From Candidatus Shapirobacteria bacterium (GTDB lineage: Bacteria; Patescibacteriota; Microgenomatia; UBA12405), in contig JACPHO010000002.1 of NCBI GenBank assembly GCA_016188545.1, positions 64,013 to 128,012 on the forward strand: a stretch of 64,000 bases of DNA, in the 5' to 3' direction. This document shows, piece by piece, positions 13,040 through 59,436 of this stretch. Made by a program: the position numbers and the translations under genes. The notes under the pieces were generated by a model, which worked only from the letters and a program-made list of their open reading frames with translations, was not told the origin of the DNA and searched no databases. Positions within the stretch are counted from its first letter, which is position 1, and every line of letters begins with the position of its first letter.

Positions 13040-13111
13040 ACCTTGTGAAAAATCCTAAATCCTAAATTCAAAAGTAAAAAATAAAAACATGATTAGGAAT
13101 TATAGAACAAA

Positions 13112-14032
13112 TCAGATTAGATCGTCGAGGTCGATGGTGGAGACATTGTGGTTGGCAGCGAGTCGCTCGAGTCCAACTAACATGTCGGTGACACTATCCT
13201 GGATACTTGAAAATGAATTTAAAAATACTTGAGTTTGAGTAACATATCCCATTATTAATACCAAATGCGAGACATGTTGCACCCCGCTTGAAGTGGCATA
13301 TATCAGATAAAAAAGAATGAGTGAATAAAATAAAACTGATAGGTTCTGTAAAAGTGACCATTCGGTAAAGCCCCAATTGGTGACACGGCTATAGTGACGA
13401 CTCCATGATTTTTGTTCGAGGTCGAAATCATCACTTTCCTGGAGCTTGGCATAATAACTTTCGGTCTTGTAATTTAAATGGTCTTTAAGCTCGGCATAAT
13501 GGTTGGTGGTATAGTAGTCGATAGCTAAATAGATAAGAATGTAAGCAGTGGTTAGGACGAAGGTGCGAAAGTCGAGTGAATACAAAATTACCGGAATAAA
13601 GAGAAAAGAAACTAGACTATCGATTCCTGGCTGCTTGACCAAATCCAGGGTTACGGCTGAAGCATCGGCAAAATTTCGAATGGCTTGGACGGCCGCGTGC
13701 CGCTCCTCTTTGGTATCGGTTTTGAGTGTGGTTAAGAAATAGTTGTGGATATCAAAAGAGATATTGGAGATCTCGTGCTCGAGTCTGGTTATGGACTTGA
13801 GACGGAGAACGTTATCGATTACCCGAACAATAAATATCCAAACAACCGAAGAAAGAATATTTTTAATAGGGGCACCAGTTTCGACTTGTTTAATTACTTC
13901 GGAAAACTGATAGATAGTTACTAGCGGTAAGATGGCAGAAATAAAGCGAACAAGTAGCCAGAAAAATAAGGGGGCCTTCTGCTTGGCAACTTTGTAAATA
14001 AATCCAATTACTTTATGAGGACGGGGCTTCAT
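13112..14032 (-). CDS. Polytopic membrane protein, possibly an ABC-exporter-like transmembrane domain without an ATPase
   Basis: About 6 predicted TM helices across 306 aa. No Walker motifs. Confidence 0.4.
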   Translation of the reverse strand: MKPRPHKVIGFIYKVAKQKAPLFFWLLVRFISAILPLVTIYQFSEVIKQVETGAPIKNILSSVVWIFIVRVIDNVLRLKSITRLEHEISNISFDIHNYFLTTLKTDTKEERHAAVQAIRNFADASAVTLDLVKQPGIDSLVSFLFIPVILYSLDFRTFVLTTAYILIYLAIDYYTTNHYAELKDHLNYKTESYYAKLQESDDFDLEQKSWSRHYSRVTNWGFTEWSLLQNLSVLFYSLILFYLIYATSSGVQHVSHLVLIMGYVTQTQVFLNSFSSIQDSVTDMLVGLERLAANHNVSTIDLDDLI

Positions 14033-14084
14033 TAATCAATTATCAATTAGGAATTAGGAATTAGCAATTTGTTAAAATGGGAGC

Positions 14085-15053
14085 ATGAGTGAAAATATAT
14101 ACGACACTATAATAATTGGTTCTGGCCCGGCTGGGTTGACGGCGGCAATTTATAACATTAGGGCGAACCTAAGGACAATTGTACTTGGAGGAGATCAGCC
14201 TGGTGGACAACTAACGCTAACAACTGTGGTGGAAAATTATCCCGGGTTTGCCACCGGAATTGGTGGACTAAAACTGATGATGGATATGCAAACTCAAGTA
14301 AAAAATTTGGGGGTGGAGATAAGAAACGCCAAAGTAATGGGCATTTCAAAATTCAAAATTCAAAATTCAAAATTCAAAATTGAATTAGAGGATGGACGGG
14401 TACTGGAGACAAAAGCGGTGATAGTAACGACAGGGGCGAAGGCAAGATGGCTTAATTTACCAAAAGAGAAGGAGCTAATTGGTAAGGGAGTATCAGCCTG
14501 TGCGACTTGTGATGGAATGTTTTTCCGAGACAAGACCGTAGTGGTGGTTGGAGGTGGTGATGTAGCTTGCGAAGATGCAATGTTTTTAAGTAAATTCGCC
14601 TCTAAGGTTTATTTGATTCATAGAAGAGATACTTTACGCGCCCAGGTTTATATCAGAGAAAAAATAAAACTAAATCCAAAAATTGAATTTGTTTGGGATA
14701 CTGAAGTAATAAATATAAATTCAAAAAATGAAAGTCAAAATTCAAAACTTGAAGATATTAAAATAAAAAATAACAAAACTGGTGAGGAAAAGGTTATGCA
14801 AATAGACGGATTGTTTGTGGCGATTGGACACGATCCGGCGACGAGTTTTGTCAAAGATTTGGTGGAATTGAAAGAAACAGGTCATGTGATCGTAGGAAAA
14901 AGTGAAAAGTATCCAACAATGACATCTGTTCCAGGAGTTTTTGCAGCCGGCGACAATGTTGACGACGTATATCGACAGGCAATTATCGCCGCGGGACATG
15001 GAGCAATGGCGGGAATGGATGCTGAGAGATGGCTGGGGGAGAATAAATCTTAA
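14085..15053 (+). CDS. trxB: Thioredoxin-disulfide reductase with an in-frame (AAAATTC)n insertion
   Basis: FAD motif IIIGSGPAGLTAAIY. Redox-active CATCDG. NADPH motif VVVVGGGDVACEDA. A heptamer tandem repeat at 14345-14377 encodes the duplicated KFKIQNSKFKI. Confidence 0.9.
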   Translation: MSENIYDTIIIGSGPAGLTAAIYNIRANLRTIVLGGDQPGGQLTLTTVVENYPGFATGIGGLKLMMDMQTQVKNLGVEIRNAKVMGISKFKIQNSKFKIELEDGRVLETKAVIVTTGAKARWLNLPKEKELIGKGVSACATCDGMFFRDKTVVVVGGGDVACEDAMFLSKFASKVYLIHRRDTLRAQVYIREKIKLNPKIEFVWDTEVININSKNESQNSKLEDIKIKNNKTGEEKVMQIDGLFVAIGHDPATSFVKDLVELKETGHVIVGKSEKYPTMTSVPGVFAAGDNVDDVYRQAIIAAGHGAMAGMDAERWLGENKS

Positions 15054-17579: not shown

Positions 17580-18596
17580 CTAGAAAAGGGTAGTTTGAGT
17601 GGATGTTGACACAGGCTGGGGAGGTTTTTGAGGATGGCGACGACGGATTCGTGATAAGAGAGATTTGAAGTTGTATTCTGCAAACAACTTTTCTAAGGAG
17701 AGGTAGGTGCCGGGGAGTAACTTGGCAGAACGGAGGGTAAATTTGAGTGGAATATTGGTAACCAAAGAGGCTAACTTTTGACTAAGATAGGCATTTTCCT
17801 TGTCTTTGAGGAGCTTTGATTTGACGGTGTCTTTGATCTCTGATGATTTTTCAAGAGCGGAATAGATATTATCCAAAGTTCGATACTTGGTTAATAGATC
17901 AGTAGCGGTCTTGGGACCAATGCCTTCAATCCCAGGATAATTATCCGATTGATCCCCCATCAAGGCCTTGAGGTCAACCACCTGATTGGGATTGACACCC
18001 AGTCGCTCTTTAACTGCCTCCGAGTCATAGACCTTGGTAACTGACAACCCTTGAACTGGCACGAAAAGATTAACTTTGTCGTCAACCAGTTGCATTAGAT
18101 CTTTATCGCCAGTAATAATGGTGACTTGGGTAATGATTTTTTTACCCTTTTTATGGCGCCTCAATGATTTTTTGGTGATTGTAGCGATAAGGTCGTCGGC
18201 TTCAAAGCCACCCATGGAATAATGAGAGATTCCAGCAGATTCTAATGTTTTAGGTAGGAGCGGAAGCTGAGTTTTAAGGTCAACATCGGCGGGTTTTCGT
18301 TGGGCGCGGTAACCGACAAACTCTTCATTTCGAAAATTGGGGCCTGGTGAGTCAAGACAGACAATAAGATACTTTGGTTTGAGGGTGTCGAGAGCCGAAA
18401 GAATCATCGAATAAAAACCATAAATAGCGTTGACAGGCTGACCATTGGAAGTAAGTGGGGGGATGGAGTGATAAGCACGGTGGGCTATGGCGTGACCGTC
18501 GACTATGACTAGATGAGACATAGGATAGTTTAGCAAGTTCATAAAGTTGGAGAGATAAGGTAGAATTTTAGGAGATGGAACAGCACGCAATTCCAC
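17580..18596 (-). CDS. Stand-alone 5'-3' exonuclease / flap endonuclease (Pol I N-terminal-domain-like)
   Basis: HLVIVDGHAIAHRAYHSIPPLTSNGQPVNAIYGFYSMI…YLIVCLDSPGPNFRNEEFVGYRAQR (PIN-like 5'-3' exo N domain). H3TH motif GDQSDNYPGIEGIGPKTATDLL. Confidence 0.8.
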   Translation of the reverse strand: MELRAVPSPKILPYLSNFMNLLNYPMSHLVIVDGHAIAHRAYHSIPPLTSNGQPVNAIYGFYSMILSALDTLKPKYLIVCLDSPGPNFRNEEFVGYRAQRKPADVDLKTQLPLLPKTLESAGISHYSMGGFEADDLIATITKKSLRRHKKGKKIITQVTIITGDKDLMQLVDDKVNLFVPVQGLSVTKVYDSEAVKERLGVNPNQVVDLKALMGDQSDNYPGIEGIGPKTATDLLTKYRTLDNIYSALEKSSEIKDTVKSKLLKDKENAYLSQKLASLVTNIPLKFTLRSAKLLPGTYLSLEKLFAEYNFKSLLSRIRRRHPQKPPQPVSTSTQTTLF

Positions 18597-19504
18597 AGCA
18601 GATTTCGTCGTACGAATTCAAACTGGTGGGAGACATGACACTTAAGCAATTTTTGAAGGCCGCAGTGGGAATAGTATTGGCGGTAGCTATTAATGCAACT
18701 AATTTGATTTTTTTCCTTAAATATCCGCTAATGTTGATATTTGGTGGAGGTGGACTGATGATGGCATTTGTACCCTTTCAAGATAGACCACTAGAAACTT
18801 GGGTAATTGCATTCTTAAGATCAATTTATTCTCCGACAATTTATACATACAAAAAAATGCCGGATAAAGACTGGATAAGTTTGATGAATAGCAAATCTGT
18901 AGGAAGAGATAAGACCCTTGATGAAGCAGAAGAAGTGTCAGTGCCAGTGAAAGACAGTAATAAGGTCAGGGAGTTTATAGAATCTTTGCCAACAGTAAAA
19001 ATGAGCGAAGCGGTGATAGATGAACCAATAGAGGAAGACGAGAGGACATTGATTGGAAAAATCGGAATGGGGGGAAATACTAACAAACTTCCTGAAAGAG
19101 AATCTGATGTACCAGTAAAAACAGAGGAACCACCAAAAGAAAATTGGCGTGACAAAAAAGCAGAACTGGGGTTGAAAGCTGATAAAGTCGAGGCAACGGC
19201 TAAAGTTGTTTTTGGCGAAATTCCAATGCCAGATAAACCAGATATTCCAAATATGATGGTAGGAATGGTAACTAACAGTGAGGAGAAAATTGTAGATGGG
19301 GCAATTGTAGAGGTACAGGATAGTAAAGGAAACCCGAGTAGAGTGCTAAAGACAAACTCCCTGGGACAATTTAGAACAACCACTCCACTTTCGAATGGTA
19401 AATATTTGATCATTACTGAAAAAGAAAAGCTAGAATTTGACAGAGTCGAAGTCGAACTGGTCGGCAAAATAGTAGAACCAGTAAAAATAAAGGCGATAGT
19501 ATGA
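18575..19504 (+). CDS. PrgI/VirB3-like T4SS membrane protein
   Basis: N-terminal ISSYEFKLVGDMTLKQFLKAAVGIVLAV followed by a second TM helix, then a soluble tail. Resembles PrgI-family proteins that sit directly upstream of VirB4 in Gram-positive-type T4SS. Confidence 0.45.
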   Translation: MEQHAIPQQISSYEFKLVGDMTLKQFLKAAVGIVLAVAINATNLIFFLKYPLMLIFGGGGLMMAFVPFQDRPLETWVIAFLRSIYSPTIYTYKKMPDKDWISLMNSKSVGRDKTLDEAEEVSVPVKDSNKVREFIESLPTVKMSEAVIDEPIEEDERTLIGKIGMGGNTNKLPERESDVPVKTEEPPKENWRDKKAELGLKADKVEATAKVVFGEIPMPDKPDIPNMMVGMVTNSEEKIVDGAIVEVQDSKGNPSRVLKTNSLGQFRTTTPLSNGKYLIITEKEKLEFDRVEVELVGKIVEPVKIKAIV

Positions 19505-19579
19505 GGAAAAGTTAAAACATAAAAGTTAAAAGTAAAAAATAAAGAAATTTTTGACTCGAATATATGGTTAAATTAAACA

Positions 19580-20299
19580 ATGGGTGTTGATCCACTAAAG
19601 ATTGCAATTAGAGGTAGTACTCAGGAGCATTTGCCGATTGAGGATATTATCGATGGAATGGTGTTACTTAAAGATGGTTCTTGCGTGAGCATTTTACAGA
19701 TTTCTTCGGTAAACTTTGACCTACTATCAGAGCGTGAACAAGGTGCTTTGATTTTTTCTTATGGGGGAATATTAAACTCTCTCAACTTCCCAGTTGAAAT
19801 TGTGATTTACTCAAACACGAAGGATGTAACTTTTTATCTTAATAACTTGAAGAAAGCAGAGGAAAAACAGACGAACATGCTTTTACGGGAACGGATTGTT
19901 CAGTACAGAAAATTTATTGAAGAAACTGTCAAGAAAAATGATGTTTTGTCAAAAGCTTTTTATGTGGTGGTGCCTTTTTCGATTTTGGAACTAGGAATCA
20001 AGAGTATGTCTTCGCAGATGATGGGGGGGATGCCAGTGTTTACAAAGAAAGAGGCAAAAGAACTACCTTTTGCGAAAAGTTATATCTTAGAAAAAGCTAA
20101 GGCAAGTTTGGAACCAAAGAAGAACCATTTGAGTCGCCTTTTTTCAAGACTTGGGCTGGAAATTAGAACACTATCAACTCGGGAATTGATTGAATTATTT
20201 TATAAAATCTATAATGAAGATACTGCAGCCGTACAGCGGGTTTCATCTTTGAACTACGACTCACCGATGATTACTACTAAAGAAAACCCAAAATCCTAA
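19580..20299 (+). CDS. Protein resembling the VirB4/TraC N-terminal domain
   Basis: PIEDIIDGMVLLKDGSCVSILQISSVNFDLLSEREQGALIFSYGGILNSLNFPVEIVIYS resembles the N-terminal domain of VirB4-family proteins. Sits immediately 5' of the VirB4 gene. Confidence 0.4.
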   Translation: MGVDPLKIAIRGSTQEHLPIEDIIDGMVLLKDGSCVSILQISSVNFDLLSEREQGALIFSYGGILNSLNFPVEIVIYSNTKDVTFYLNNLKKAEEKQTNMLLRERIVQYRKFIEETVKKNDVLSKAFYVVVPFSILELGIKSMSSQMMGGMPVFTKKEAKELPFAKSYILEKAKASLEPKKNHLSRLFSRLGLEIRTLSTRELIELFYKIYNEDTAAVQRVSSLNYDSPMITTKENPKS

Positions 20300-20354
20300 A
20301 TCCAAAAGCCATGCCTACCGGCAGGCAGGTAAAAAATAAAAAGCAAAAACAATA

Positions 20355-22973
20355 ATGGATATTTTTAACTTAATTAAAAAAAACAAAAAAACTCCGGCAG
20401 AAATGGCAGCAGCGGTGGTGGATGTTAAAACTGGATTGATTGATCAGGGTAAGACTAAAGAGAGACAATTTGTAGAAGGGTTGGTCTCAACTAAAGATAT
20501 TATTGCTCCTGGTGCTTTGGAGGTTGAAACTGATTTTATCAAGATCGGAACTAAATTCTATCGAACTCTTTTTACAGTAATAAACAGACGTTTTGTGGAA
20601 ATTAACTGGCTATCAACTTTAATCAATTTCGATGCATCCTTGACGGTAGCCATGTACATCTACCCATCAGATGGTAAGGAAATTTTGGATGATCTTCGAC
20701 GTAAAATCACAGAAATGGAGGCAGAACTAACAACTGATATCCAAAGAGGGAGGATTGTAAACCCAGCAACACAAGCCAAACTTGAGGATGCCCTGAATCT
20801 ACAAGCTGACTTGGTTAAAGGTGAGGAAAGATTTTTCCAAATGGGTTTGTATATTACGGTAAGTGCTGAAAGTAAAGAACAGATGGATAAGGTGACCAAG
20901 AACTTAGAGGCAGCTATGGGTGCTCTAATGGTATTGACCAAGAGAACAACATTTGATGCTGAGAATGCCTTTATTACTACCCTACCACTTGGTTCTGATC
21001 GACTTAACCTTACTCGGAACATGGATACAACCTCACTGGCGACAACATTTCCATTTGTTTCATCTGATCTTTCTGACGATAAAGGGATTATGTTTGGAAT
21101 TAATGAACATAATGGATCACTAGTTATTTTCGACCGATTCTCAATGCAAAACTACAACTCTGTAGTATTTGCAACAGCTGGAGCTGGAAAGTCTTACATG
21201 ATTAAATTGGAGGCTTTACGGTCGCTAATGATGGGAACAGATATTATTGTAATCGACCCGGAAAATGAGTACAAAGATTTGTGTGAGGCGGCTGGTGGAC
21301 AATACATTGCTTTTGGGTATGGTGAAGCATCGAAGATTAATCCTTTTGACTTGTCTCTAATTGTTGATGAAGGTGATAATGCACTGAATGCCAAGATTTT
21401 GGGGGTACATAAACTACTAAAAGTAATGCTTGGTGAACTGGATCCAATCGAAGAATCCATTCTTGACCGAGCGGTAGTTGACGCTTACAAAATGAAAGGA
21501 ATTACTCCAGATCCAGAGACACAGTCAAAAGAGCCGCCATTGGTCGAAGATTTGTATAAATCACTAATTGGAATGGAGGATAAACAGGCGCAGATGATAG
21601 CGGCTCGGCTGGAAAAATATATTAAAGGATCGTTTGCGGGGATTTTTAACCAAAAAACAACAGTTAATTTGAAAAGCGAGTTTGTGGTTTTTGGAATAAA
21701 AAACCTGGAAGATACTCTGCGACCGGTGGCCATGCATATTATTCTTGACTACATCTGGACAGTAGTTAAGAAAGAAATGAGAAGAAGAATCTTAGTTGTC
21801 GACGAGGCGTGGTACCTAATGCAATACCCCGATTCGGCAGCATTCTTACGAGGAATTGTTAAACGAGGAAGGAAATACTATCTTGGGGTAACTACAATCA
21901 CTCAGGATGTAGATGACTTTTTGGAAACAGCCTATGGACGCGAAATCGTAACTAACAGCGCCATTCAAATTCTTCTAAAACAACACAGTGCGGCAATTGA
22001 CCAAATTGGGGAGGTTTTTTACTTATCTGAGGGAGAAAAACAACTACTTTTGTCAGCGGACAAAGGAGAAGGTATTTTCTTTGCCGGCCAAAATCATGTG
22101 GCAATTAGAGTGGTGGCGTCGGAAGATGAACATAAACTAATTACATCTAACCCAGAAGAGGTAATGAAGATGAAACAACAACTGAAGTTGCAGAGAGCAA
22201 AAGAGGCTGAAGATAGGCGGGTGGAAAGAGAAGCAATGGGACCACTTGGGACTAGCGACATCATTAAACAAATGGGTAAAACAGAGGAACCCTTAGTAAA
22301 AACAACAGAACCAGAATTGGTACTAACTAAACCTCCTGAAACGCTGGAAAAAACGGTAGTTCAATCACCTATAATGGTAACTGAGGTGGTGGGAGATACT
22401 AAACCAGAAGAAGAGCTGCAAAAAAGAATTGCTGAAATGGAGGCAGTTGAAAAAGAAAAGGTGGAAGAACATAAGAAAAAAGTTGCGGCAGAGGCTGAAG
22501 TATTAGCAAAAGAAGAAGTCGAAAAAAAGAAGCTTCAAGGAACTTTGGGTGGTTTTGGAACTCTACCAAAATATCAGGATTTATTTGTTAATAAAAATAA
22601 ACTACCTCCATTACCACCATTGCCTCCCCTTCCAAAATTCCAACCATCTACTGCACCATCAGCAAGTTCGGGGCTAAATAGTGCACCAGCACCAGTAGCA
22701 CCAACAACGCTTCCAAAATCACCACAATTTGCGACCGAGGTAGTATCTAATACTGGCAAACCGACTTTTGTGAATTTACCGAAAGAAGAAGTAAAAGTAC
22801 CACAACCACCTCAATTGTCGAAGAAACCCCAACCAGTATTTGAAAATCAAACAATGCCACAGCCAGTAAGTACTCAACCGTCTACAGCAGCGACCATGCC
22901 AACTGATAAACCAAAAGATAACCAAAATAACGCTCCTGGAATGGACTATGACAAACTGTTTGGGAACGTGTAG
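20355..22973 (+). CDS. VirB4/TrbE/CagE-family T4SS ATPase with a ~250-aa Pro/Ala/Ser-rich C-terminal tail
   Basis: CagE_TrbE_VirB-type region (FYRTLFTVINRRFVEINWLSTLINFDASLTVAMYIYP). Walker A VVFATAGAGKSYMIK. Walker B ILVVDEAWYLM. Tail …KLPPLPPLPPLPKFQPSTAPSASS…. Confidence 0.85.
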   Translation: MDIFNLIKKNKKTPAEMAAAVVDVKTGLIDQGKTKERQFVEGLVSTKDIIAPGALEVETDFIKIGTKFYRTLFTVINRRFVEINWLSTLINFDASLTVAMYIYPSDGKEILDDLRRKITEMEAELTTDIQRGRIVNPATQAKLEDALNLQADLVKGEERFFQMGLYITVSAESKEQMDKVTKNLEAAMGALMVLTKRTTFDAENAFITTLPLGSDRLNLTRNMDTTSLATTFPFVSSDLSDDKGIMFGINEHNGSLVIFDRFSMQNYNSVVFATAGAGKSYMIKLEALRSLMMGTDIIVIDPENEYKDLCEAAGGQYIAFGYGEASKINPFDLSLIVDEGDNALNAKILGVHKLLKVMLGELDPIEESILDRAVVDAYKMKGITPDPETQSKEPPLVEDLYKSLIGMEDKQAQMIAARLEKYIKGSFAGIFNQKTTVNLKSEFVVFGIKNLEDTLRPVAMHIILDYIWTVVKKEMRRRILVVDEAWYLMQYPDSAAFLRGIVKRGRKYYLGVTTITQDVDDFLETAYGREIVTNSAIQILLKQHSAAIDQIGEVFYLSEGEKQLLLSADKGEGIFFAGQNHVAIRVVASEDEHKLITSNPEEVMKMKQQLKLQRAKEAEDRRVEREAMGPLGTSDIIKQMGKTEEPLVKTTEPELVLTKPPETLEKTVVQSPIMVTEVVGDTKPEEELQKRIAEMEAVEKEKVEEHKKKVAAEAEVLAKEEVEKKKLQGTLGGFGTLPKYQDLFVNKNKLPPLPPLPPLPKFQPSTAPSASSGLNSAPAPVAPTTLPKSPQFATEVVSNTGKPTFVNLPKEEVKVPQPPQLSKKPQPVFENQTMPQPVSTQPSTAATMPTDKPKDNQNNAPGMDYDKLFGNV

Positions 22974-22994
22974 GTGAACTGTATAATAAATTGA

Positions 22995-25900
22995 ATGAAG
23001 AAGTTTGAATTGTATGAAGAACTAGGGCGGCTATCCGGCAGAGGTGAAATACTGGAAATATCTAATGCGGCTTACAATACCTGCAGTAGGTTATTTTCTG
23101 ACTTGGGAATGGGTGGAAAGTTTGATCCGACAAACCCAGGAAGGATGTTGGATGCTTTATATGGATTTGAAACAACGACAGGTAATAACAATAAAGTCAC
23201 TCAAGCATTGGAAGTAATTGAAGCAGACTTGAATCCTGCTGTGGAAACAAGAAATGACAAGGTGGGTCCAATGTCACTTAGGTCAGATCAATTAAAAGTG
23301 CTGCTTGATAAAGTTGATGAGAAAAAACATAGGGATGACGTAGAAGCGATGGCAACTGAAGCAACAAGAGAAAGATTGCTAAGGAATGCAGACCGTAACA
23401 TAGTGGTGGCAACACTAATAAAAAAGTTTGAAATACAGGAAAAACTCCATTCGATGGGAAAAACGAAGGCAGAGGCAGATAGACTTTCCGACCTAATCCT
23501 GGAGACTGGGCAAGTAGTAACGACCATTGTTGAAGATGATGAGTTTTTAGGAAAGGAATCACTTAGGCTAGCCGAAGAAATTGTGGAGCTGTCAGAGAAA
23601 GCCAAAACAACGGTCGAGGCAGTAGAGCTAGCAAAATCACTACAAGCTGAAAACTCAATTATAGATGCCAATGAAATGTTGCAGTACTTAGTAGAGACGA
23701 ACAGAGCCAGCCGAGAACTAGAAATAAAAATTGATGAAATAGCTAGAGATGTGGTAGCTGATGTTGAAAGAGAAGGAGGTTCGCTTGGGGGTAGGAAAGA
23801 TGAAGTACTAAAACTAATTGAAGAGAGATATGAGAAGGTACTAGTACATCCTGAGTATAATATTAATGAAGCAAAATACGAAACGAGAATAGGTGAAAAC
23901 GGAAGGTATGAGCGGGTAGTTGTCGAAAGAGGACTGACTGAAGAAATAGTTGAAATACTGAAAGGCGGAGCCAGAGGAAATATTCCAGGTAGACAGGAAA
24001 AAATAATTGAAGCAGTGGTGGAAAATAAGCTGGGAGCATCAGCAACTCCACTAACTGACGTGACCAATGCATCAACCGGAAATGAAGCAAAAATGATGAT
24101 GGAGAAACTCACATCACATGGTTTTGGGGCGGCAGATTTGAAAGCATTAATGAGATTGAGGTCGGGAGCGACAGAGTCGGGAATTGAGGGGATTGAAAAT
24201 GGATTGACACAAGAACATGAAATAAAAATAAAGATGGTAGGAAAGGGAGTGCCAGCAACGAAAATTGCTGAGGTGGAAATGGGAACTGTGGTAACGTCGA
24301 TGTTAAATGGCGATGAACCAATACCAGAGTTAGTTCAGAGAATTGAAAATGACTACAAAGCGAAGTTAGTCGGCACAGAGCATGGTGAAAGGAGACGACT
24401 AAAAGATGGTGATGTGCGTGTTGTTTCAAGGGGGTCAATTCCGGAAATGGAAGCTGTAGTAAAGGTAGCTGATAGGCTAAAAGACAGACCGGATTTGCAG
24501 GGCAGAATGGAGCTAATTCGAAAAATTGAAAAGGCAAAGAATTTTATTGATAGATATTCAGGTGGAGCAATAAGCAAAGCAATGGGAAACTCATCAATCC
24601 AAATTGGGAGAATAATGAAGATTGAGGGACTACAGCAGTTTGGAATGCAACTGGCTAGTCGTTATGGCGGGGTTATGGGGGAGGCAATGGCCTCTCAAAT
24701 AGTGAATTTTGGTTTTGAAAAGGGCTTACAAAACATCTTAGTCCAATTGCTTAGAACTGGAACTGTAAAGGCAGTGGAAGTGGGAGCAACAGGTGCAACA
24801 GCGGCCGCGGGAACAGCCGCAACCGGAACAGCACTTGCGGCTGGAGGACCGCCGACATGGATAGTAGCAGCGGTTTTGGCGGCAATAGCAGTGGTAAAAA
24901 AGGCCTGGAGTGGAATGGAAAAGGGTTTGATAAAAATGTTGGAGTTTTTGGGATTTGACTCGTACAAAACCCGAGAGTTTTTGAAAAACGGGGTGGGAAA
25001 AATAGTAACCGTTGGGGGAATGGCCATTGGTGGGGCAACAACAGTGATAATTGGTATTGGAGGGATGTTGATGTCTATACCGACAGGGATAATAGGGACA
25101 GTTTTTGCGATTGTATTGGCAGTATTGATTGGATACAACCTGCTTCAAGTGGCAACAACCCAAGTATCAAGTTTGGTGGTGCCAAAATCAGATCCGATTG
25201 TGGGGGCATGTATCAAAAAAGAGGATTTAACAGATCCCCCAACCGGACCGTTGGCCAATTGTAATGTAAACGCACCAGCATCGAATTATGGAGGAATAAG
25301 TAAAGATGCGTTTGTAACCCTAGCAGAAAGTTGGTCGGCAGGTGGCGGAGTCAATGCGGCAAGATGTTTTAATGATGTGGTTTGTAAGGCTTTAAGTGCT
25401 GGCATTAATCCGACATATGCACTGTGGGCATGGCTACATGAATCAGGAGCTAGTAACTATTCACTCGGGAGTGATATTGAAGATTTTGGGATACATTACA
25501 TCCCAGAAAATAATAATTTTAATGCGCAATGGGAGGCATTTGCCAAACTTGATCCAGCCTCAGGCTGCTCAGGGATTTCAGATTATTGGTTGGCTTTTGC
25601 CACTAATTATCTGAATGGCTCAGACCATTGCGACCCTGATTATCAGAATCCAACTTCAGGACAAACAGGAAGACAATATTTAGCCGAACTGCAAAGTACT
25701 TGGGAATGGTTAAATGCTGGGCCAATGCCAACATCGATACATGTGCCAAAACAAGCTTGTGGTGGAGGATCTCCTGAGGGTGGGGTAGAAGAAACGGATC
25801 CGAATACAGGCGAGAACTTTGTCTGCTTTGGGGGAGCAAAACTAGGCCCAAGTACCCCTTTAAACGGAGCTAAGAGTGGTGGATCGGTGTACAATCCAAA

Positions 25901-26465
25901 CGCGACAGGGCTAGAGGGAGAGAAAATACCAGGTGAATGTACTGTGTCTGATAAAGTGGTGTTGACAAAGCAGTGTGGACAGGCCTGGTCAAATAAAGGG
26001 TTACCTGGAGGATCGGGGACAATCTGCACAGCCGGCTGTGGACCAACCTCAGTCTCAATGATGCTGAGACACTTTAATGGGAGCCTAACACCAGATTCGG
26101 TTATATTTTCACCAGGGTCGGCATACAACTCAATGAACAACGATGGATCTAGTTTGGGACAAGCAACGGCGGAAATAAATAAATATTTTCCAGGAGCGGC
26201 TAGTAGTTCACAACCATGTGATGCTAAAGCAATTGGTGGTTGGATCTGTGCTGGAAAGGTGGTAATGGTGCTAGCTGATTTTTATAACAGCAACAGCTTG
26301 ACAGTGGGAGGACATTTTGTGTTGGGAGTGGCGGTTCAGAATGGAAGCATTGTAACTGCTGATCCTTACTATGCTACCAAAACTCCGTTTGATGGAACTA
26401 AAAAATATGGGTATGCTAGAAATATTCGGAGTTGTATTACTATTGATGCGAGTAAAATTAAATAA
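22995..26465 (+). CDS. Large T4SS-associated membrane protein with C-terminal C39-like papain-fold domain (VirB1/PrgK-type hydrolase analog)
   Basis: N-terminal ~550-aa coiled-coil region. Gly/Ala-rich TM helices at about residues 590-710. C-terminal CTAGCGPTSVSMMLRHF (nucleophile Cys) and GGHFVLGVAVQNGSIVTADPYY (His/Asp) as in Peptidase_C39-like domains. Positioned right after VirB4. Confidence 0.55.
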   Translation: MKKFELYEELGRLSGRGEILEISNAAYNTCSRLFSDLGMGGKFDPTNPGRMLDALYGFETTTGNNNKVTQALEVIEADLNPAVETRNDKVGPMSLRSDQLKVLLDKVDEKKHRDDVEAMATEATRERLLRNADRNIVVATLIKKFEIQEKLHSMGKTKAEADRLSDLILETGQVVTTIVEDDEFLGKESLRLAEEIVELSEKAKTTVEAVELAKSLQAENSIIDANEMLQYLVETNRASRELEIKIDEIARDVVADVEREGGSLGGRKDEVLKLIEERYEKVLVHPEYNINEAKYETRIGENGRYERVVVERGLTEEIVEILKGGARGNIPGRQEKIIEAVVENKLGASATPLTDVTNASTGNEAKMMMEKLTSHGFGAADLKALMRLRSGATESGIEGIENGLTQEHEIKIKMVGKGVPATKIAEVEMGTVVTSMLNGDEPIPELVQRIENDYKAKLVGTEHGERRRLKDGDVRVVSRGSIPEMEAVVKVADRLKDRPDLQGRMELIRKIEKAKNFIDRYSGGAISKAMGNSSIQIGRIMKIEGLQQFGMQLASRYGGVMGEAMASQIVNFGFEKGLQNILVQLLRTGTVKAVEVGATGATAAAGTAATGTALAAGGPPTWIVAAVLAAIAVVKKAWSGMEKGLIKMLEFLGFDSYKTREFLKNGVGKIVTVGGMAIGGATTVIIGIGGMLMSIPTGIIGTVFAIVLAVLIGYNLLQVATTQVSSLVVPKSDPIVGACIKKEDLTDPPTGPLANCNVNAPASNYGGISKDAFVTLAESWSAGGGVNAARCFNDVVCKALSAGINPTYALWAWLHESGASNYSLGSDIEDFGIHYIPENNNFNAQWEAFAKLDPASGCSGISDYWLAFATNYLNGSDHCDPDYQNPTSGQTGRQYLAELQSTWEWLNAGPMPTSIHVPKQACGGGSPEGGVEETDPNTGENFVCFGGAKLGPSTPLNGAKSGGSVYNPNATGLEGEKIPGECTVSDKVVLTKQCGQAWSNKGLPGGSGTICTAGCGPTSVSMMLRHFNGSLTPDSVIFSPGSAYNSMNNDGSSLGQATAEINKYFPGAASSSQPCDAKAIGGWICAGKVVMVLADFYNSNSLTVGGHFVLGVAVQNGSIVTADPYYATKTPFDGTKKYGYARNIRSCITIDASKIK

Positions 26466-31852: not shown

Positions 31853-31884
31853 TTATCCACATCATAATAAATTAGTTTTCCACA
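31853..31884. promoter_or_regulatory. DnaA boxes upstream of dnaA (TTATCCACA 31853-31861, TTTTCCACA 31876-31884)
   Basis: One perfect consensus DnaA box and one 8/9 match in the dnaA 5' region. Coding-strand bias switches here. Confidence 0.55.
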
Positions 31885-31981
31885 TTTAACAAGATGTCAA
31901 ATCCCCTCTGTCTGCTGAATGGCGGACATCTCCCCTTGATACCCTAACGGGCACAGGTAAAGGGAGAAACACAAACTTGTT

Positions 31982-32437
31982 TTATAGACCGGCGGAGTAT
32001 TTAGCAGCCAGGCGAATTCTTGCTTGACCACCAATATCTTTTGGGTTAAATTTGAGAATCTTAGCATCGCCTATACCATCATTGTTTAATTTTTCAGCTG
32101 GTGATTCAGCAATTCTTGGTCTTTCAAAATCTGCCGTTGAGGCTATTTTAATAAAAGCTTCTGGGTGGGTGTAAAGTCGATCATCAAATCCAGTGACGGT
32201 AAAAGTTACGTCTGGAGTGGCGATTAAAACTTGTGAGTCTCCACCAGGATCAAATATGTTTTTACTAATCATAATGGGTTTTCCGTCCGGGAGAGTTGCA
32301 AGCATTAATCCATTTTTTTCTAAGTTGCCAATACTTAAAATTTCTTTGGCAAATTCCGGTAATCCTTCTAGTGTATCTTCAACGTCAGTAATGGGGATGG
32401 TATTTTCGTTTAAGTAGTATCTAGTACCGTCTGGCAT
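31982..32437 (-). CDS. Hypothetical protein (151 aa) between dnaA and rpmH
   Basis: Clean ORF with balanced protein-like composition. No motif recognised. Confidence 0.45.
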   Translation of the reverse strand: MPDGTRYYLNENTIPITDVEDTLEGLPEFAKEILSIGNLEKNGLMLATLPDGKPIMISKNIFDPGGDSQVLIATPDVTFTVTGFDDRLYTHPEAFIKIASTADFERPRIAESPAEKLNNDGIGDAKILKFNPKDIGGQARIRLAAKYSAGL

Positions 32438-32535: not shown

Positions 32536-32688
32536 TATGAAAGAGAAGGGAACATACCAACCAAAATCAAAAAAACGTCTACGAGTTCATGGGTTTCTAA
32601 AAAGAATGGCAACTCAGGATGGTAGGAATGTCATTAAAAGACGACGAGCGAAAGGTAGAACTAGACTGACTGTGTCTTCGGAAAAATA
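32536..32688 (+). CDS. rpmH: 50S ribosomal protein L34
   Basis: 50-aa product [46 protein letters not shown] matches the L34 consensus (…RKRTHGFRARMAT…GRKVLARRRAKGRKRLTV). Absent from the ORF track because it is under 60 aa. Confidence 0.85.
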
Positions 32689-32712
32689 AATTGTCAACTT
32701 ACACTCACAACA

Positions 32713-32761
32713 TTTTTTTCTCGCTAGTCAATGCTGGCGCGTTGAAGGCTTCGAAAAAAAA
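32713..32761. repeat. Conserved hairpin-forming intergenic element, copy 1 (T-run/stem-loop/A-run)
   Basis: TTTTTTTCTCGCTAGTCAATGCTGGCGCGTTGAAGGCTTCGAAAAAAAA. One of three copies sharing CTCGCTAGTCAATG…GTTGAAGGCTTCGAAAAAAA. Confidence 0.6.
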
Positions 32762-32807
32762 CATTATCTCGCTTTGTTGATCATTACTTTTTCAAGTAGA
32801 ATAGGAT

Positions 32808-33146
32808 GTGTTGAAGAAAATTAATCGTGGTTTAACTAAAAAAGACTTTGCCAGTATTTTGGGTGGGGGTAAGACCATCCAGACCCCCCTATTTGGAGTT
32901 AGATATATAAAATCGGAAGAAACAAAATATGGTTGGATTGTGTCGAAAAAAATTTCAAAAAAGGCTGTTGATCGAAATAAAATAAAAAGAAGGTTGGCAG
33001 AGGTTATTGCTAAAAAGATACTGCAAAATGTTCACCTGGTGGTATTGGTGAAGAAAAGTATATTAGCTGCGAAGATAATTGAAATTAAACAGTGTTGGAA
33101 TGGAATTTATGAAAAAGTTAGTTCTAAAAATAATTTTTTGGTATAA
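32808..33146 (+). CDS. rnpA: Ribonuclease P protein component
   Basis: 112 aa, basic, with AVDRNKIKRRLAE (RNR-like motif). Sits between rpmH and yidD. Confidence 0.75.
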   Translation: MLKKINRGLTKKDFASILGGGKTIQTPLFGVRYIKSEETKYGWIVSKKISKKAVDRNKIKRRLAEVIAKKILQNVHLVVLVKKSILAAKIIEIKQCWNGIYEKVSSKNNFLV

Positions 33147-33315: not shown

Positions 33316-34479
33316 ATGGGTTTTGGTAATGAAATAATACAAAAAATGGACGGGGTGCCTCCATATTTAAAAGAAGTTTCAATGGTGTTTGACCGAAAAG
33401 TGACTGCTTTAAGAAGTGAGTTTTTCGTGAATTGCAAAGACGGAGATCCTGAAGAAGTAGTTGGATTGTTTAAAAAAGTGTATTGTGATCGTGTGAAAAG
33501 TGAAGATGGGATGCGAGAGTCGATCTTTATTAGAAAGCCGTTAAAATTGGTTGATTGGTCTGATTTAAAGAATGAATTGTCTGAGTCTGAAAGAAGTGAA
33601 TACATAGTTAATGATTTAATTGAATCAACGGGTGAAGAAATAGCAAAAGTGGCAAAACATGATAGGAGTAAGGGAGCGGTTGAAGCGGCGTTTTTACTTT
33701 TAAACGGGATGCCTATTAACGTCGTAACTGCTGAATTAAGGCGTCAAGAGGTTCCATTTAATACTGAAAAAGCCGATGATCCATTATTTGCGGTGCTTAA
33801 TGAGGCAGTAATGGTGAGAAAAAGTATGGGTGAATATGTAAACACTCAGGAAATTTTCAATTATAAAGGTTTAAAAATAAATATAAATAATGAAGTAGAT
33901 AGCATCGGGATTCCGTTGACGGTATTTAAGTATTCAAGTGACGAATCTGATAGGCTCAGATTATTTCTTAAGGCAAATTTAGGAATAAATAATAAAACTA
34001 TAAGTGCGGATGATGCGACAAAGACGTGTAAGTGGTTACTGGAAAATTATGAGAAGGTTTATCGAGCTCAGGTGATAGATGGGGAAACAATTGCCCAGAG
34101 AATGGGAGAATGGCAATTCGCGAGAGAATATTTAGCTGATGTAAAAGTAAAAGATGTTAAAGACCTAAAAAATCAACATCAACTACAGTCCCACAGAAGA
34201 TCAATCGGTAACATGGTGGCCTTAAGAGGTGTGGAGCTATATTCTGAGGGTGACTATTATGAGGCATATACACAAATTGCTTTTGCTTTGTTTATTGGAA
34301 TACCGACAGATAAAATTATTGAGTTGTTAGATACTTATAAAAATGTTAGTTATGATTTGAGTGGAAAATCGAAAGAGTTTTTGTCGAAAATGTTGGTGAA
34401 TGCTAAAAAAGTTGAAGATAAAGTCAGACAGGAATTTGCAGAATTAATGCCGGAGCAAGTAGTCGAATTAATAGTTTGA
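33316..34479 (+). CDS. Hypothetical soluble protein (387 aa) inserted between yidD and yidC
   Basis: Long ORF with protein-like composition. No motif recognised. Confidence 0.5.
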   Translation: MGFGNEIIQKMDGVPPYLKEVSMVFDRKVTALRSEFFVNCKDGDPEEVVGLFKKVYCDRVKSEDGMRESIFIRKPLKLVDWSDLKNELSESERSEYIVNDLIESTGEEIAKVAKHDRSKGAVEAAFLLLNGMPINVVTAELRRQEVPFNTEKADDPLFAVLNEAVMVRKSMGEYVNTQEIFNYKGLKININNEVDSIGIPLTVFKYSSDESDRLRLFLKANLGINNKTISADDATKTCKWLLENYEKVYRAQVIDGETIAQRMGEWQFAREYLADVKVKDVKDLKNQHQLQSHRRSIGNMVALRGVELYSEGDYYEAYTQIAFALFIGIPTDKIIELLDTYKNVSYDLSGKSKEFLSKMLVNAKKVEDKVRQEFAELMPEQVVELIV

Positions 34480-35348: not shown

Positions 35349-35445
35349 ATACTAAAGTGAAAATTCAAAAGTAAAAAGTAAAAGCAAGGCGGTGGGCATG
35401 GCCCAGCCTACGATAAAGCTACGGTGGGCATGGTAGAATAGGCGC

Positions 35446-35916
35446 ATGGAAAATAAAGAACGTAATCAAACAATCCTTCAAATCACATGTGAAATGTTGG
35501 AAAAAATGAACTTCGAAGTTGACGATGCTTTCGTCGAAGACGTGGCTGAAGAAGAAAATCAAGTTTTGGTAAGCGTAACTGTGGCTAACCCAGCTGGGTT
35601 GATTGGATTTCGAGGTCGCAATTTGGCGGCTATCCAACTGGTTCTTTCCTTGGTTGTTAAAAACAAACTCGGTGAATGGGTAAGAGTACTCCTTGATATC
35701 AACAACTATCGTCAAGAACAGAAAGAAAGACTAACAAATATGGCGTTGAATTTGGCTGAAAAAGTCAAAGCAACTGGAAATGAAGTGGTAATGGCCAACA
35801 TGAGTTCTTACGAGAGAAGGTTGTGCCATATGGCTCTCGTTGAAATCGAAGGAATTACTTCGGATTCTGAGGGAGAAGGTGAAGATCGACATATTGTCAT
35901 TAAGCCAATAGCTTAA
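35446..35916 (+). CDS. jag: Jag/KhpB-like RNA-binding protein (KH + R3H)
   Basis: KH-like VANPAGLIGFRGRNLAAIQLVL. R3H-like SYERRLCHMAL. Canonical position after yidC. Confidence 0.7.
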   Translation: MENKERNQTILQITCEMLEKMNFEVDDAFVEDVAEEENQVLVSVTVANPAGLIGFRGRNLAAIQLVLSLVVKNKLGEWVRVLLDINNYRQEQKERLTNMALNLAEKVKATGNEVVMANMSSYERRLCHMALVEIEGITSDSEGEGEDRHIVIKPIA

Positions 35917-37221: not shown

Positions 37222-37440
37222 TTGAATTAGACCGATAATCGGCTAGCTTATTTAATCTCAAGCGCACGTACCGCCGTTATCTGAATTCTCGAAGATCTCC
37301 AAAGGGTAAAACAGATCTTCTGCGAAATCTCTACTCCGGAAACATGTTTGACTTTGAATTGACTTGATCGCTAAAGGTTATTTTGTTTAAGGTTTTGTTT
37401 GTAAACGATGAAAATTAATTAGTAGAAGGTAGAATACACT

Positions 37441-38652: not shown

Positions 38653-38988
38653 CAAGTAACTAGAAATTAGTAACCAGTAACAAGAATAAAACAGTGAATT
38701 TGGATTAGGATGCTTCGGAAAGAGTTTTTTTGTGAGGTTTTTTGATATATAAATCGCTTGGGAGTTGGGACATTTTTTTCTTATTAAAAACGTGGAAAAA
38801 TGGCTGTTCGGACAATTTTTGCAGGCATAAACAAAGCCGTATATCCCCTTATTGGGTACTGACAATTTATAAAGTTAACAGTGCACGTCATTACGTTTTT
38901 TCACGTTTCAAACCCCAATTCTAACATCTTGATACAGTCTATTGACCAATAACCGCATAATAACCGATTATTAACCGCCATCCTTCGC

Positions 38989-41900: not shown

Positions 41901-42144
41901 GCGAATGGTGGAGGTAAGGTATGTAGATCAAGTTGATCTGACAAAAAAGGAAAAATTTTCCTATCTACACTACATTCAAAGGCAACCAGGGTATGGTGAT
42001 ACTGGCCTAGTCTCTTTGGTTACTCTACCAACTGGATGGCAAGTAAATCAGGTGGAGCCGGCGGCGAGTATGGTTGGGGAGAAATTATTGTTTAATCAAA
42101 AATTGGATAGAGATATAAAGCTAGGAGTTGAAATTTCAAAATAA
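38989..42144 (+). CDS. Large single-pass membrane protein with C-terminal DUF4012 domain
   Basis: TM helix around residue 450. Extracytoplasmic FMVLLQNESEIRPGGGFIGSYGIL…ISDIYEADGQL matches the DUF4012 core (LLqNnaElRptGGfiGsy). Cell-envelope gene context. Confidence 0.6.
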   Translation: MLSYGLVNTIKFELVKLELGMRDGLPVALVNGLGLLGTSGLVEKLSENEMKVVAVGEFESRLTTMPSVVVKGEIPTDLKGVDYVFDFIGEPRLWTKLVGSETRLMVIGVNGEDVADLRELGGSVNWRVLRAHGVSGRGRNLSALNQEVGFLVRAMELAVKNQNLVLPARKSNIRLLGEPSFVDVMMRGMFLSNTQNNIFDVWGEVVEVEDLAKWLIDEAKMTRSKVLESEEQQPLPEGEMVEAEWGRLRWKPGSDVGITVAQALQYFFAKADEESRRPKSAPEIKPAKFEEKVNVPRRFEVVVESAVVSGDIEAVVEHEGNGELLTESEVIGAEPETIVEPEAEVAKVVPTPRVEIQEDRHDSIAKIMREEYGESLKKEAVKPIEITPFLVKNSNSRFVKPQEDELTEVIEKEEPRLAAKPVHEEKKLEILEKVTNKTLPWKWLAAMGISIITVTVLLLVFWGVDNYRMVRSIYAIAQMANEKKYDEASTVAGATIKRVLANQTMVDKWKWNRWVWGRRYQDLLRVAEQGLKLETEVVTVAKRSETINAGMFKEKDIDWKKELEGLKKEMEDVRGTMSMLSARMAGDWSWIPNRWRGDFNNARTKVTEINGVIGKVTRAVDFLPEMLGTDGKRREFMVLLQNESEIRPGGGFIGSYGILSFENGKLLNFEISDIYEADGQLKGHVEPPAAIKKYLGEAKWYMRDANWQADFGMSAKDIQWFMEKETGRKVDGVIGVDLAVAKAILGVTGEIYVPDFKEKINKNNLYEQAEFYSETKFFPGSKQKASFLGGLGRQLFEEIKNLKGEQRLKMVLALVDMMERNEIQIALTNEPAAKVVAELGWNGALYEGKCAVDRCFADYLYVVEANLGVNKANYFLYRSIDQTIDIGTQTIGRVVKISYENTAKNNSWPGGDYKNYVRMYIPSSANLAEVSVTDMEANGVKTIFSGESLDVSTSRGKKEIGFLVVVPAGKKRMVEVRYVDQVDLTKKEKFSYLHYIQRQPGYGDTGLVSLVTLPTGWQVNQVEPAASMVGEKLLFNQKLDRDIKLGVEISK

Positions 42145-42164
42145 TGATCAATCTCTCGATAACA

Positions 42165-42214
42165 TTTTTTCTCGCTAGTCAATGTGCAACGCACGTTGAA
42201 GGCTTCGAAAAAAA
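42165..42214. repeat. Conserved hairpin-forming intergenic element, copy 2
   Basis: TTTTTTCTCGCTAGTCAATGTGCAACGCACGTTGAAGGCTTCGAAAAAAA. Inner stem CAATGTGC/GCACGTTG with G-U wobble. 20 nt after the DUF4012 gene stop. Confidence 0.6.
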
Positions 42215-42341
42215 CATTATCATCGAGATCGATATTATTTAAATGAAAATTTCTAACTCCTAACTTCTAAAATAAAAATTCAAAAGTAAAAAGTAAAAAC
42301 ATAGACTTGAAAATTAACTTCCAATTTCCAAACAAACAACA

Positions 42342-53488: not shown

Positions 53489-53896
53489 TTAGTGGCTGGG
53501 GATAATAAAGTTGGTAACGTCGGCACCGGTAATTTTTTTGATGAGTTGAAGAATTAGGTAGGAAGAGACAACACCAACTAACCCAAGAATAGACATGGTA
53601 AGAGTGGATGAGGCAGTGGCAACTCGTTTTTGATCACCACTACTAAAAAGATATTGAAAACCACCATTGATAAACATGACAAAAAAAATGATACCGGCGA
53701 GACCAACTATGACTTGGAGGATGTTACCAAAAAGACACTCGAGACCTTGGAGAGTAGCGACATCGCCTTGAGCGAGGCATTTTCCAGACCAGGTGGATTG
53801 GGCTTGGGCTGGAATAGCGAAAGAAAAAAGAAAAAAGTAAAAAGTAAAAATAAATTGGAAAAAACGATTTCTCATGGGTAGATTATACAAAATCAA
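53489..53896 (-). CDS. VirB2/TrbC-like pilin paralog 1
   Basis: Sec signal peptide (…AIPAQA-QS), then two hydrophobic helices separated by the loop FSSGDQKRVATAS. About 105-aa mature protein. Confidence 0.45.
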   Translation of the reverse strand: MILYNLPMRNRFFQFIFTFYFFLFSFAIPAQAQSTWSGKCLAQGDVATLQGLECLFGNILQVIVGLAGIIFFVMFINGGFQYLFSSGDQKRVATASSTLTMSILGLVGVVSSYLILQLIKKITGADVTNFIIPSH

Positions 53897-53941
53897 CGTT
53901 GATTTACGAAATATGATTCATGATTTAAGAATAGAACAAAA

Positions 53942-53965
53942 ATATCCCCGAGAAATCGGGGATAT
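53942..53965 (-). terminator. Perfect 10-bp stem hairpin followed (minus sense) by a T-rich tract, between pilin paralogs
   Basis: ATATCCCCGAGAAATCGGGGATAT. Read on the minus strand it is followed by TTTTGTTCTATTC, 25 nt after the stop of the 53990..54385 pilin gene. Confidence 0.55.
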
Positions 53966-53989
53966 TTTGATTTGTGATTGATTCCTTGG

Positions 53990-54385: not shown

Positions 54386-54430
54386 TAAATTATTAATAAT
54401 TAGCTAATTGTAACAGTAAAGTAAATAAAA

Positions 54431-54820: not shown

Positions 54821-54822
54821 AT

Positions 54823-55555: not shown

Positions 55556-55559
55556 TTAT

Positions 55560-56886: not shown

Positions 56887-56912
56887 GATTTATGATTTAT
56901 GAATAGAACAAA

Positions 56913-58310: not shown

Positions 58311-58334
58311 TTTATGATTTAAGATTTATGATAT

Positions 58335-59345: not shown

Positions 59346-59347
59346 TC

Positions 59348-59397: not shown

Positions 59398-59436
59398 TAT
59401 TTTCGAATTATTACTTTTTATTAATATATATAGTAT

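Follow-up and report, generated by a model that had tools for sequence, protein, structure and literature searches.

The window, i.e. the whole 64-kb stretch of DNA analysed here, contains three copies of a hairpin-forming element, located between rpmH and rnpA, between a DUF4012 gene and an RNHCP-domain gene, and between two RimK-like genes (Table 1). The rpmH gene was identified by translation, and the DUF4012, RimK-like (ATP-grasp) and downstream genes were assigned with Pfam. All three copies claimed by the initial annotation were recovered: the pattern CTCGCTAGTCAATG-N(2-14)-GTTGAAGGCTTCG has exactly three matches, all on the + strand, which are listed as conserved cores in Table 1, and as it gave no matches in 100 dinucleotide-preserving shuffles, none is expected by chance. 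No further copies were found in the 64 kb by half-site searches allowing mismatches, by a covariance model run without filters or by the full-length model R3 described below. The copies lie just after stop codons and are each followed by a + strand gene, as had been noted, with the T-run beginning 23, 20 and 2 nt past the stop codons of rpmH, the DUF4012 gene and the first RimK-like gene, respectively.

The inner stems have the form first reported, namely UCAAUGUGC/GCACGUUGA with the loop AAC in copy 2, the same stem with one extra G·U in copy 3, and the shorter stem UCAAUGC/GCGUUGA with the loop UGGC in copy 1; a U·G wobble (CAAUG/CGUUG) common to all three copies had been missed. Folded as sense RNA, the 50-nt core consists, from the outside, of a stem formed by the U-run and the A-run, a 2x3 loop (UC/UUC), a GCU/GGC helix, a 2x1 loop and an apical stem of 7-9 bp plus extensions, which includes the U·G wobble, with fold energies from -14.7 to -18.4 kcal/mol.

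The 50-nt span initially given to the element was too small. Copy-specific complementarity runs ~30 nt further on each side, so the unit is ~110 nt long, and the 50-nt copies are the conserved centres of ~110-nt imperfect-palindrome, hairpin-forming repeats located between genes. For the 30 nt on each side of the core, pairing with the own partner gave -10.6 kcal/mol versus -5.0 kcal/mol with the partners of other copies, and the own partner ranked first or second in 16 of 28 units. The complementarity is significant both at 1-15 and at 16-30 nt from the core (p ~1e-6) and fades past 30 nt, and the predicted hairpins have a median of 45 bp. The limits of unit 1 were set by comparison with the empty site of a related locus, L001, and extend from just past the rpmH stop codon to just before TAGAAT. 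Unit 2, with a fold energy of -33 kcal/mol, was also found as a long inverted repeat.

Table 1 Coordinates of the hairpin repeats, their parts and other mapped features. Positions are those of the window unless a related locus (L number) is named.
Feature	Coordinates	Strand	Basis or remark
Unit 1, whole ~110-nt hairpin repeat, rpmH/rnpA	32684-32793	+	R3, 68.8 bits
rpmH stop codon TAA, base of unit 1 5' arm	32687-32689	+	translation
Unit 1 5' outer arm (ATTGTCAAC...CTCACAACA)	32690-32712	+	fold, flank complementarity
Unit 1 T-run T7, pairing with the A-run	32713-32719	+	sequence, fold
Unit 1 conserved core	32720-32753	+	pattern match; apical stem 32728-32734/32739-32745, loop TGGC 32735-32738
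Unit 1 A-run A8	32754-32761	+	sequence
Unit 1 3' outer arm (CATTATCTCGC..GTTGATCATTAC..)	32762-32796	+	sequence, fold
-10-like TAGAAT 3' of unit 1	32797-32802	+	rnpA start codon GTG at 32808
Unit 2, whole hairpin repeat, DUF4012 gene/RNHCP gene	42135-42247	+	R3, 78.7 bits
DUF4012 stop codon TAA, within unit 2 5' arm	42142-42144	+	
Unit 2 T-run T6	42165-42170	+	sequence
Unit 2 conserved core	42171-42207	+	pattern match; stem 42179-42187/42191-42199, loop AAC 42188-42190; R1 81.4 bits
Unit 2 A-run A7	42208-42214	+	sequence
Unit 3, whole hairpin repeat, between two RimK-like genes	59318-59427	+	R3, 79.8 bits
Unit 3 MFE hairpin	59329-59414	+	fold
RimK-like gene stop codon TAA, within unit 3 5' arm	59343-59345	+	
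Unit 3 T-run T6	59348-59353	+	sequence
Unit 3 conserved core	59354-59390	+	pattern match; stem 59362-59370/59374-59382, loop GGC 59371-59373; extra G·U
Unit 3 A-run A7	59391-59397	+	sequence
dnaA	30404-31843	-	
Example sites of start-proximal -10-like hexamers	35430-35448, 22980-22997, 32797-32810		
T4SS-like, T4SS-pilin-like and cohesin/dockerin regions	18575-26465, 53489-55901, 60358-63209		
Scaffold units with type B or C cores, L023	3155-3272, 5906-6020		
Scaffold units with type B or C cores, L025	200-320, 7560-7679, 9766-9881		
Scaffold units with type B or C cores, L089	9884-10004, 10970-11088		

Apart from the repeats, the window contains T4SS-like genes (a PrgI-like gene and a gene for a TraG/VirB4-like P-loop ATPase), a T4SS-pilin-like cluster and genes coding for cohesin/dockerin proteins, with the pilin-like cluster and the cohesin/dockerin genes being syntenic in relatives. 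Upstream regions contain short repeats in tandem: AATTAGG is present three times, together with its complement, around the divergent pair 13112/14085 (13040-14085), and GATTTAT repeats precede two ATP-grasp genes (56890-56912 and 58312-58334). Upstream of the DUF4012 gene (38886-38966) there are conserved non-coding motifs, ACGTCATTACGTTTTTTCACGTTTC followed by a tandem ATAACCG-type repeat with AACCGCATAATAACCG, and a 16-mer of this region is found at the equivalent place in 12 relatives; these motifs may correspond to a regulatory site or to a leader RNA.

All the units share one scaffold. From the outside in, it is composed of an AT-rich outer stem, a 2x3 pyrimidine loop (5' CUCG / 3' CUUCG) bounded by C-G and G-C pairs, a GUWAC/GUWAC stem, a short mismatch and the U-run/A-run stem, followed by the core, and in the core type carried by the window (type A) the CUCG/CUUCG loop of the scaffold is repeated. 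The internal loops were also considered as K-turns, which was ruled out on inspection as there is no tandem G·A.

The structure-preserving substitutions first reported from the three copies hold in a wider set of relatives, where changes on both sides are seen in six of the seven apical pairs and in all 17 arm pairs tested. In the apical stem, 85.5% of cells are paired versus 75.5% after shuffling (reached in 0 of 500 shuffles), with pair types CG13/GC10, UA18/CG4, AU20/GC2 and GC16/AU2/GU2/CG1 alternating at individual positions, and the U·G wobble is almost invariant (22 of 22 sequences). A model with three helices applied to 30 full units is paired in 77.3% of cells, compared with 60.9% after shuffling (0 of 500) and at most 43% with slid partners, and changes on both sides occur in 12 of 12 outer and 5 of 5 middle pairs. 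Covariation thus supports three nested helices. RNAalifold run on a MAFFT alignment of the full units returned the apical stem only, because the arms are misregistered in that alignment, and the structure was therefore supplied by hand. A sliding 110-nt minimum free energy scan of the window is dominated by GC-rich coding regions and did not single out the units.

Related loci were searched with three covariance models. R1, built from four copies, found ~20 related elements in 1.13 Mb of the dnaA loci of relatives; a second model, R2, raised the count up to 28; and R3, a full-length model with 114 positions and 30 pairs, gave 39 distinct units at E<=5e-6 together with ~8 weaker matches, and another 5 units were found in additional loci. 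Altogether ~50 distinct units are known from the window and ~30 related loci. Their orientation is uniform, sense to the adjacent genes, and the reverse-strand matches to the models are echoes of the same palindromes.

The closest relatives among species-representative genomes are Candidatus Shapirobacteria MAGs, with DnaA identity up to 92%. The exact core had no matches in the GTDB species genomes, and in metagenome contigs it was found at one locus, L001. Two scans of viral contigs yielded one match only, rejected as chance because it is located within a phage coding region, has no hairpin and is not recognised by the covariance model. Searching Rfam 15 with the whole window at the gathering threshold returned no match, and around copy 2 and in L089, searched at an E-value threshold, there were only sub-threshold matches to miRNA- or snoRNA-like hairpins, none of them credible. 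The literature searched on repeats, terminators and MITEs of CPR bacteria describes no such element. The best explanation for these observations is that Candidatus Shapirobacteria (CPR/Patescibacteria) possess a lineage-specific repeat family of imperfect palindromes, each ~110 nt long, which is not in Rfam and is not described in the literature searched.

On the common scaffold at least three types of core are found: type A (..GGUGAAUGUGCGNCGCACGUUCAAGG.. or AGUCAAUG..), type B (CCACUGGAAAAUGARUCUG...) and type C (GCAGUGCUCG..CCUUCGG..GCGCGCU). The weaker R3 matches keep the scaffold with a different centre, and types A and C are present side by side in one genome (L030/L089). Cores of the same type are near-identical within a genome while the arms differ, as in the window, L030 and L035 with three copies each, and their variants are specific to a clade; selection or gene conversion thus keeps the cores uniform. 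The core of L001 is the same as that of window copy 1 over 47 nt, with RnpA being just 79% identical. L001 has its unit at yidD|yidC and an empty rpmH|rnpA spacer, and in the window the situation is the opposite; a unit is thus gained, lost or relocated as one entire piece of ~105 nt. Near-identical, clade-specific cores together with differing occupancy mean that the units are also copied or homogenised as DNA.

These observations bear on the earlier suggestion of a MITE-like repeat, of which one part stood: cores are near-identical per genome, occupancy differs and core types coexist. The features expected of a MITE itself were not found. There is no target-site duplication, either in the flanks or in the filled-versus-empty comparison of the window with L001, and AAATTT-type flanks considered as such were rejected since they are inverted complements with differing sequences and not direct repeats. 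Nor are terminal inverted repeats the best conserved part: the conserved part is the core, with semi-conserved CTCG-GTWAC / GTWAC-TTCG motifs and outermost stems that only covary. A resemblance to IS608 (TTAC/TCAA) was a short partial match only and was dismissed.

A wider form of the same idea is that the repeat is selfish DNA and nothing more: a recombinase or an HUH-type enzyme, encoded elsewhere, would mobilise or copy it in the form of a single-stranded DNA hairpin, along REP/RAYT-, IS200/IS605- or attC-like lines, and any effect on RNA would be incidental. This reading would account for the near-identical cores of a clade-specific type, for types A and C in one genome and for the identical core at rpmH|rnpA in the window and at yidD|yidC in L001, the other site being empty in each. 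It also fits the single orientation on one chromosome arm, non-coding divergent regions included, the wobbles without overall strand bias and the fixed mismatches on both strands, as in REP or attC hairpins. We nevertheless regard it as rather unlikely. A Pfam scan of ~50 window ORFs found no transposase, integrase or HUH protein, the unit lacks a target-site duplication and is least conserved at its outermost ends, and the viral contigs contain no true matches. Moreover, the same junctions are reused across species and the core is conserved about as well as adjacent coding sequence, which argues for host-level constraint or continuing conversion.

The units occupy a narrow range of positions relative to genes. 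Of 25 units examined, 15 have a same-strand ORF that ends 2-32 nt 5' of the core, either within the 5' arm or at its base, and in copies 2 and 3 the unit extends over the final codons of the upstream gene. As a rule the 5' arm begins at the stop codon of the upstream gene and the 3' arm stops shortly 5' of the next gene. Occupied junctions recurring across species are those after rpmH, yidD, yidC, khpB and the Wzy-like, DUF4012 and RNHCP genes, as well as the RimK-like/RimK-like junction. Many gene junctions in the window carry no unit, and the density, 3 per 64 kb in the window, reaches 7 per ~34 kb in one relative.

Downstream genes commonly possess TAGAAT, TAAAAT or TATAAT 5-7 nt before the start codon, with 27-82 nt between the core and the hexamer. 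Throughout the window, 24 of 63 genes carry a TANNNT hexamer that ends 5-10 nt upstream of the start codon (e.g. ggTAGAATaggcgcATG) and only 2 of 63 a Shine-Dalgarno-like 4-mer, which suggests, as far as can be judged from sequence, that this organism commonly has leaderless transcription units and that the repeats would sit between units that are mostly of this kind.

At least five units are located in divergent promoter regions and have no same-strand gene upstream, namely four upstream of rpmH beside DnaA boxes (L030, L035, L058 and L063) and one upstream of a 7TM_transglut gene (L089). In the 24 unit-bearing dnaA loci all the units fall within ~200 kb on the side of rpmH, the ~190 kb on the side of dnaN having none; likewise, no unit was detected by R3 in the left 30 kb of the window.

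Several further observations concern the same junctions. Two DnaA-box-like 9-mers (TTATCCACA and TTTTCCACA) are located just upstream of dnaA at 31853-31885, and in relatives similar boxes are found beside the hairpin unit in the dnaA|rpmH spacer. A 151-aa ORF without a Pfam match (31982-32437, - strand) lies between dnaA and rpmH in the window, the two genes being direct divergent neighbours in L030, L035, L058 and L063, the relatives in which this spacer was read. A 387-aa ORF, also without a Pfam match (33316-34479, + strand), is inserted between yidD and yidC; in L001 nothing but the hairpin unit lies between these two genes. Another recurrent hairpin, CCCCTCTTT-N4-AAAGAGGGG, is present in the rpmH|rnpA spacer of other Shapirobacteria (e.g. 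L043, L053, L078, L034) and has a T-run on its 3' side in some of them. A different hairpin, CGAAGATCT-N14-AGATCTTCTGCG, occupies the Wzy-like|flippase spacer of the window (37285-37325); it is not recognised by R3 and folds no better than shuffled sequences, and several relatives have a unit of the family at this junction.

The position relative to dnaA and to promoters would fit a DNA-level element, that is, a cruciform-prone palindrome or protein-binding site which organises the origin-side chromosome arm or buffers supercoiling upstream of promoters. A GC core with AT-rich arms and homopolymer T/A tracts favours cruciforms by C-type extrusion. The units have such a core, arms and tracts, so that cruciform extrusion may occur here, and they are located upstream of promoters, including divergent regions next to DnaA boxes, on one side of dnaA only, with full-length folding that has no net strand bias. 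Against this, the spacing to the -10 box ranges from 27 to 82 nt, the stems covary and keep no fixed binding sequence, the core is unlike parS, and units are probably also present ~150 kb from dnaA in one genome (from L091 coordinates in a sister assembly, collinearity being assumed). We consider such an element very unlikely. The parS palindrome itself (16 bp, TGTTNCACGTGAAACA) was discarded by inspection, the half-sites in the core GTGAATGTGCGNCGCACGTTCA being in the wrong order and at the wrong spacing.

The initial annotation had also proposed a structured terminator or attenuator. A stable GC-containing stem-loop does follow the stop codon, at 2-23 nt, but the classical form of this reading fails, as on either strand the A-run follows the GC hairpin and the U-run precedes it. 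No U-tract begins 0-2 nt past the stem, the full hairpin lacks a U-rich tail, and the three copies were not flagged in a consensus scan for intrinsic terminators. A textbook bidirectional intrinsic terminator, AAAATATCCCCGA-loop-TCGGGGATATTTT, is located at ~53917-53950 between - strand pilin-like genes, and classical terminators therefore exist in this genome.

An atypical or factor-dependent terminator or insulator, separating transcription units that are closely spaced and mostly leaderless, would be better matched to the position, which is the classical one, from the stop codon to 10-60 nt before the next -10 box. It would also agree with the GC-rich hairpins at rpmH|rnpA in other relatives, some of them followed by T-runs, and with the lack of an excess of canonical terminators at 32-45 kb of the window (8 found versus 7.9 expected in the consensus scan). 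Set against it are the A-run after the GC-rich hairpin, the composition of the 10 nt past the whole hairpin (37% T and 41% A, with T-runs equally common on both sides), the textbook terminator used elsewhere in the same genome and the units which have no upstream transcript to terminate; on balance it is unlikely that the units act in this way.

The idea of a separate small-RNA gene, raised initially as well, was not borne out: with a 5' arm that begins at the stop codon of the upstream gene or within it, and that overlaps this codon or coding sequence, no space is left for an own promoter. More generally, it appears highly improbable that the units are independent small-RNA genes or belong to the downstream promoter as a -35 or UP-like element. 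Copy 2 does have a 9/12 promoter match, TTGAAG-16-TATCAT, overlapping the 3' half of the core, and the hairpins resemble miRNA precursors to Rfam models, yet no Rfam family matches at threshold, promoter-like matches number 31 versus 29.1 in shuffles, copies 1 and 3 have none, and the distance to the real -10 boxes varies. TTGAAG was accordingly not accepted as a -35 element, being confined to copy 2, of background frequency and at a variable core-to--10 distance.

Whether the units act as RNA or as DNA was approached through strand asymmetries. In 27 of 28 units the core has the better fold when taken as sense RNA, with a mean difference of 2.95 kcal/mol (p=1e-5), and full-length folds have no strand preference. 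Wobbles in the apical stem (32 G·U versus 3 A·C) favour the sense strand, whereas those in the middle stem (3 G·U versus 22 A·C) favour the antisense strand. In all sampled units the direction of the genes is also the presumed direction of replication, so the sense orientation is compatible with either role. Taken together, the mixed wobble bias and the coinciding directions mean that the data fit RNA-level and DNA-level action alike.

The reading we favour, although tentatively, is that of a REP/ERIC-like repeat family co-transcribed at gene ends, the RNA of which would form a barrier or processing hairpin between mostly leaderless transcription units. According to this model, the unit would be transcribed at the 3' end of the upstream gene and its RNA would fold into a long quasi-continuous helix which does not stop RNA polymerase in the manner of a canonical terminator; with an A-run instead of a U-run after the GC stem, the helix is stable without the U-tract required for intrinsic termination. 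The helix could then block 3'-to-5' exonucleolytic decay by PNPase, be cut by RNase III, or both, so that the 3' end of the upstream mRNA would be fixed and separated from read-through RNA, an action of the REP, ERIC or T7 R1.1 kind. As DNA, the units would be copied or homogenised by gene conversion or transposition. The predicted hairpins provide the at least ~20 bp of quasi-continuous double-stranded RNA with internal loops that characterise an RNase III site, and RNase III, PNPase and RNase J are reported to be kept in at least 90% of CPR genomes (PMC12641178). The proposed 3'-end role does not apply to the at least five units in divergent regions because these have no same-strand gene upstream, and the one-sided distribution around dnaA also speaks against a boundary role, since a general boundary element should be found on both sides; the many gene junctions of the window that carry no unit count against it as well.

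A more specialised possibility, which we put forward as doubtful, is a CPR-specific system of gene punctuation in which the scaffold with its exchangeable cores A, B and C is read by a dedicated trans-acting factor. The repeats would then mark one mostly leaderless transcription unit after another along a single chromosome arm, and the factor might be either an RNA-binding or RNA-cleaving protein, giving 3'-end formation independent of a U-tract, or an attC-like single-strand recombinase acting at housekeeping gene junctions.

CPR/Patescibacteria make up a large and mostly uncultivated share of bacterial diversity, and to our knowledge little is established about the organisation of their transcripts. 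A conserved covarying hairpin between transcription units could be a candidate signal for mRNA ends in the absence of classical terminators. Alternatively, it could mean that a streamlined genome carries repeats of the REP or attC type, of which the literature searched has no description. In either case the covariance models are a direct means to take a census of the family.

Among known systems, bidirectional intrinsic terminators share with the units a GC-rich hairpin after the stop codon and a stem extended by pairing of A- and U-tracts, but in the units the U-run is on the 5' side and the A-run on the 3' side, leaving the RNA of neither strand with a U-tract after the hairpin. The attC sites of integrons (e.g. 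Vibrio VCRs) are imperfect palindromes of similar length, located right after ORFs in one orientation along the array; like the units, they are alike within a genome and have a variable centre, asymmetric unpaired bases and AAC...GTT in the arms (GTAAC/GTTAC in the units). In the alignment, however, only AAC/GTT of the R''/R' consensus (RYYYAAC/GTTRRRY) is present, no intI or attI was found in the window, nor any integrase among its scanned ORFs, and the genes between units are not cassettes but housekeeping genes of conserved order (rpmH, rnpA, yidD, yidC, khpB).

REP/BIME elements of Enterobacteria and the RAYT-associated REPINs of Pseudomonas are, as the units are, extragenic imperfect palindromes repeated in the genome just after stop codons, with genome-specific repeats and a fixed stem mismatch, and they are co-transcribed with the upstream gene, as proposed here for the units. 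REP sequences stabilise the upstream mRNA against 3'-5' exonucleases. The unit differs from REP in being three times longer (~110 versus 20-40 nt) and in its scaffold-plus-core design, and from both REP and REPIN in the single orientation of all ~50 units, with no inverted pairs, in the modest copy density and in the host, a CPR bacterium with a small genome; unlike REPINs, it is not accompanied by a RAYT (Y1 HUH transposase) among the ~50 window ORFs scanned with Pfam.

In length the units are closer to ERIC/IRU and Correia (NEMIS) elements, which are imperfect palindromes of 100-150 nt in transcribed intergenic regions and give long RNA hairpins, as predicted for the units. Correia hairpins are RNase III substrates and ERIC copies alter mRNA stability. 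Both families have well-conserved termini, and Correia elements also have target duplications and both orientations, whereas in the units it is the centre that is conserved, the outer stems only covary, there is no duplication and the orientation is uniform. Finally, the RNase III signals of phage T7 (R1.1 type) differ from the units, which are longer, chromosomal, have two repeated 2x3 pyrimidine loops and are also located upstream of first genes, but these signals likewise are intercistronic hairpins of mutually related sequence built of an upper stem, asymmetric internal loops and a lower stem, and their cleavage leaves a protective 3' hairpin on the upstream mRNA.
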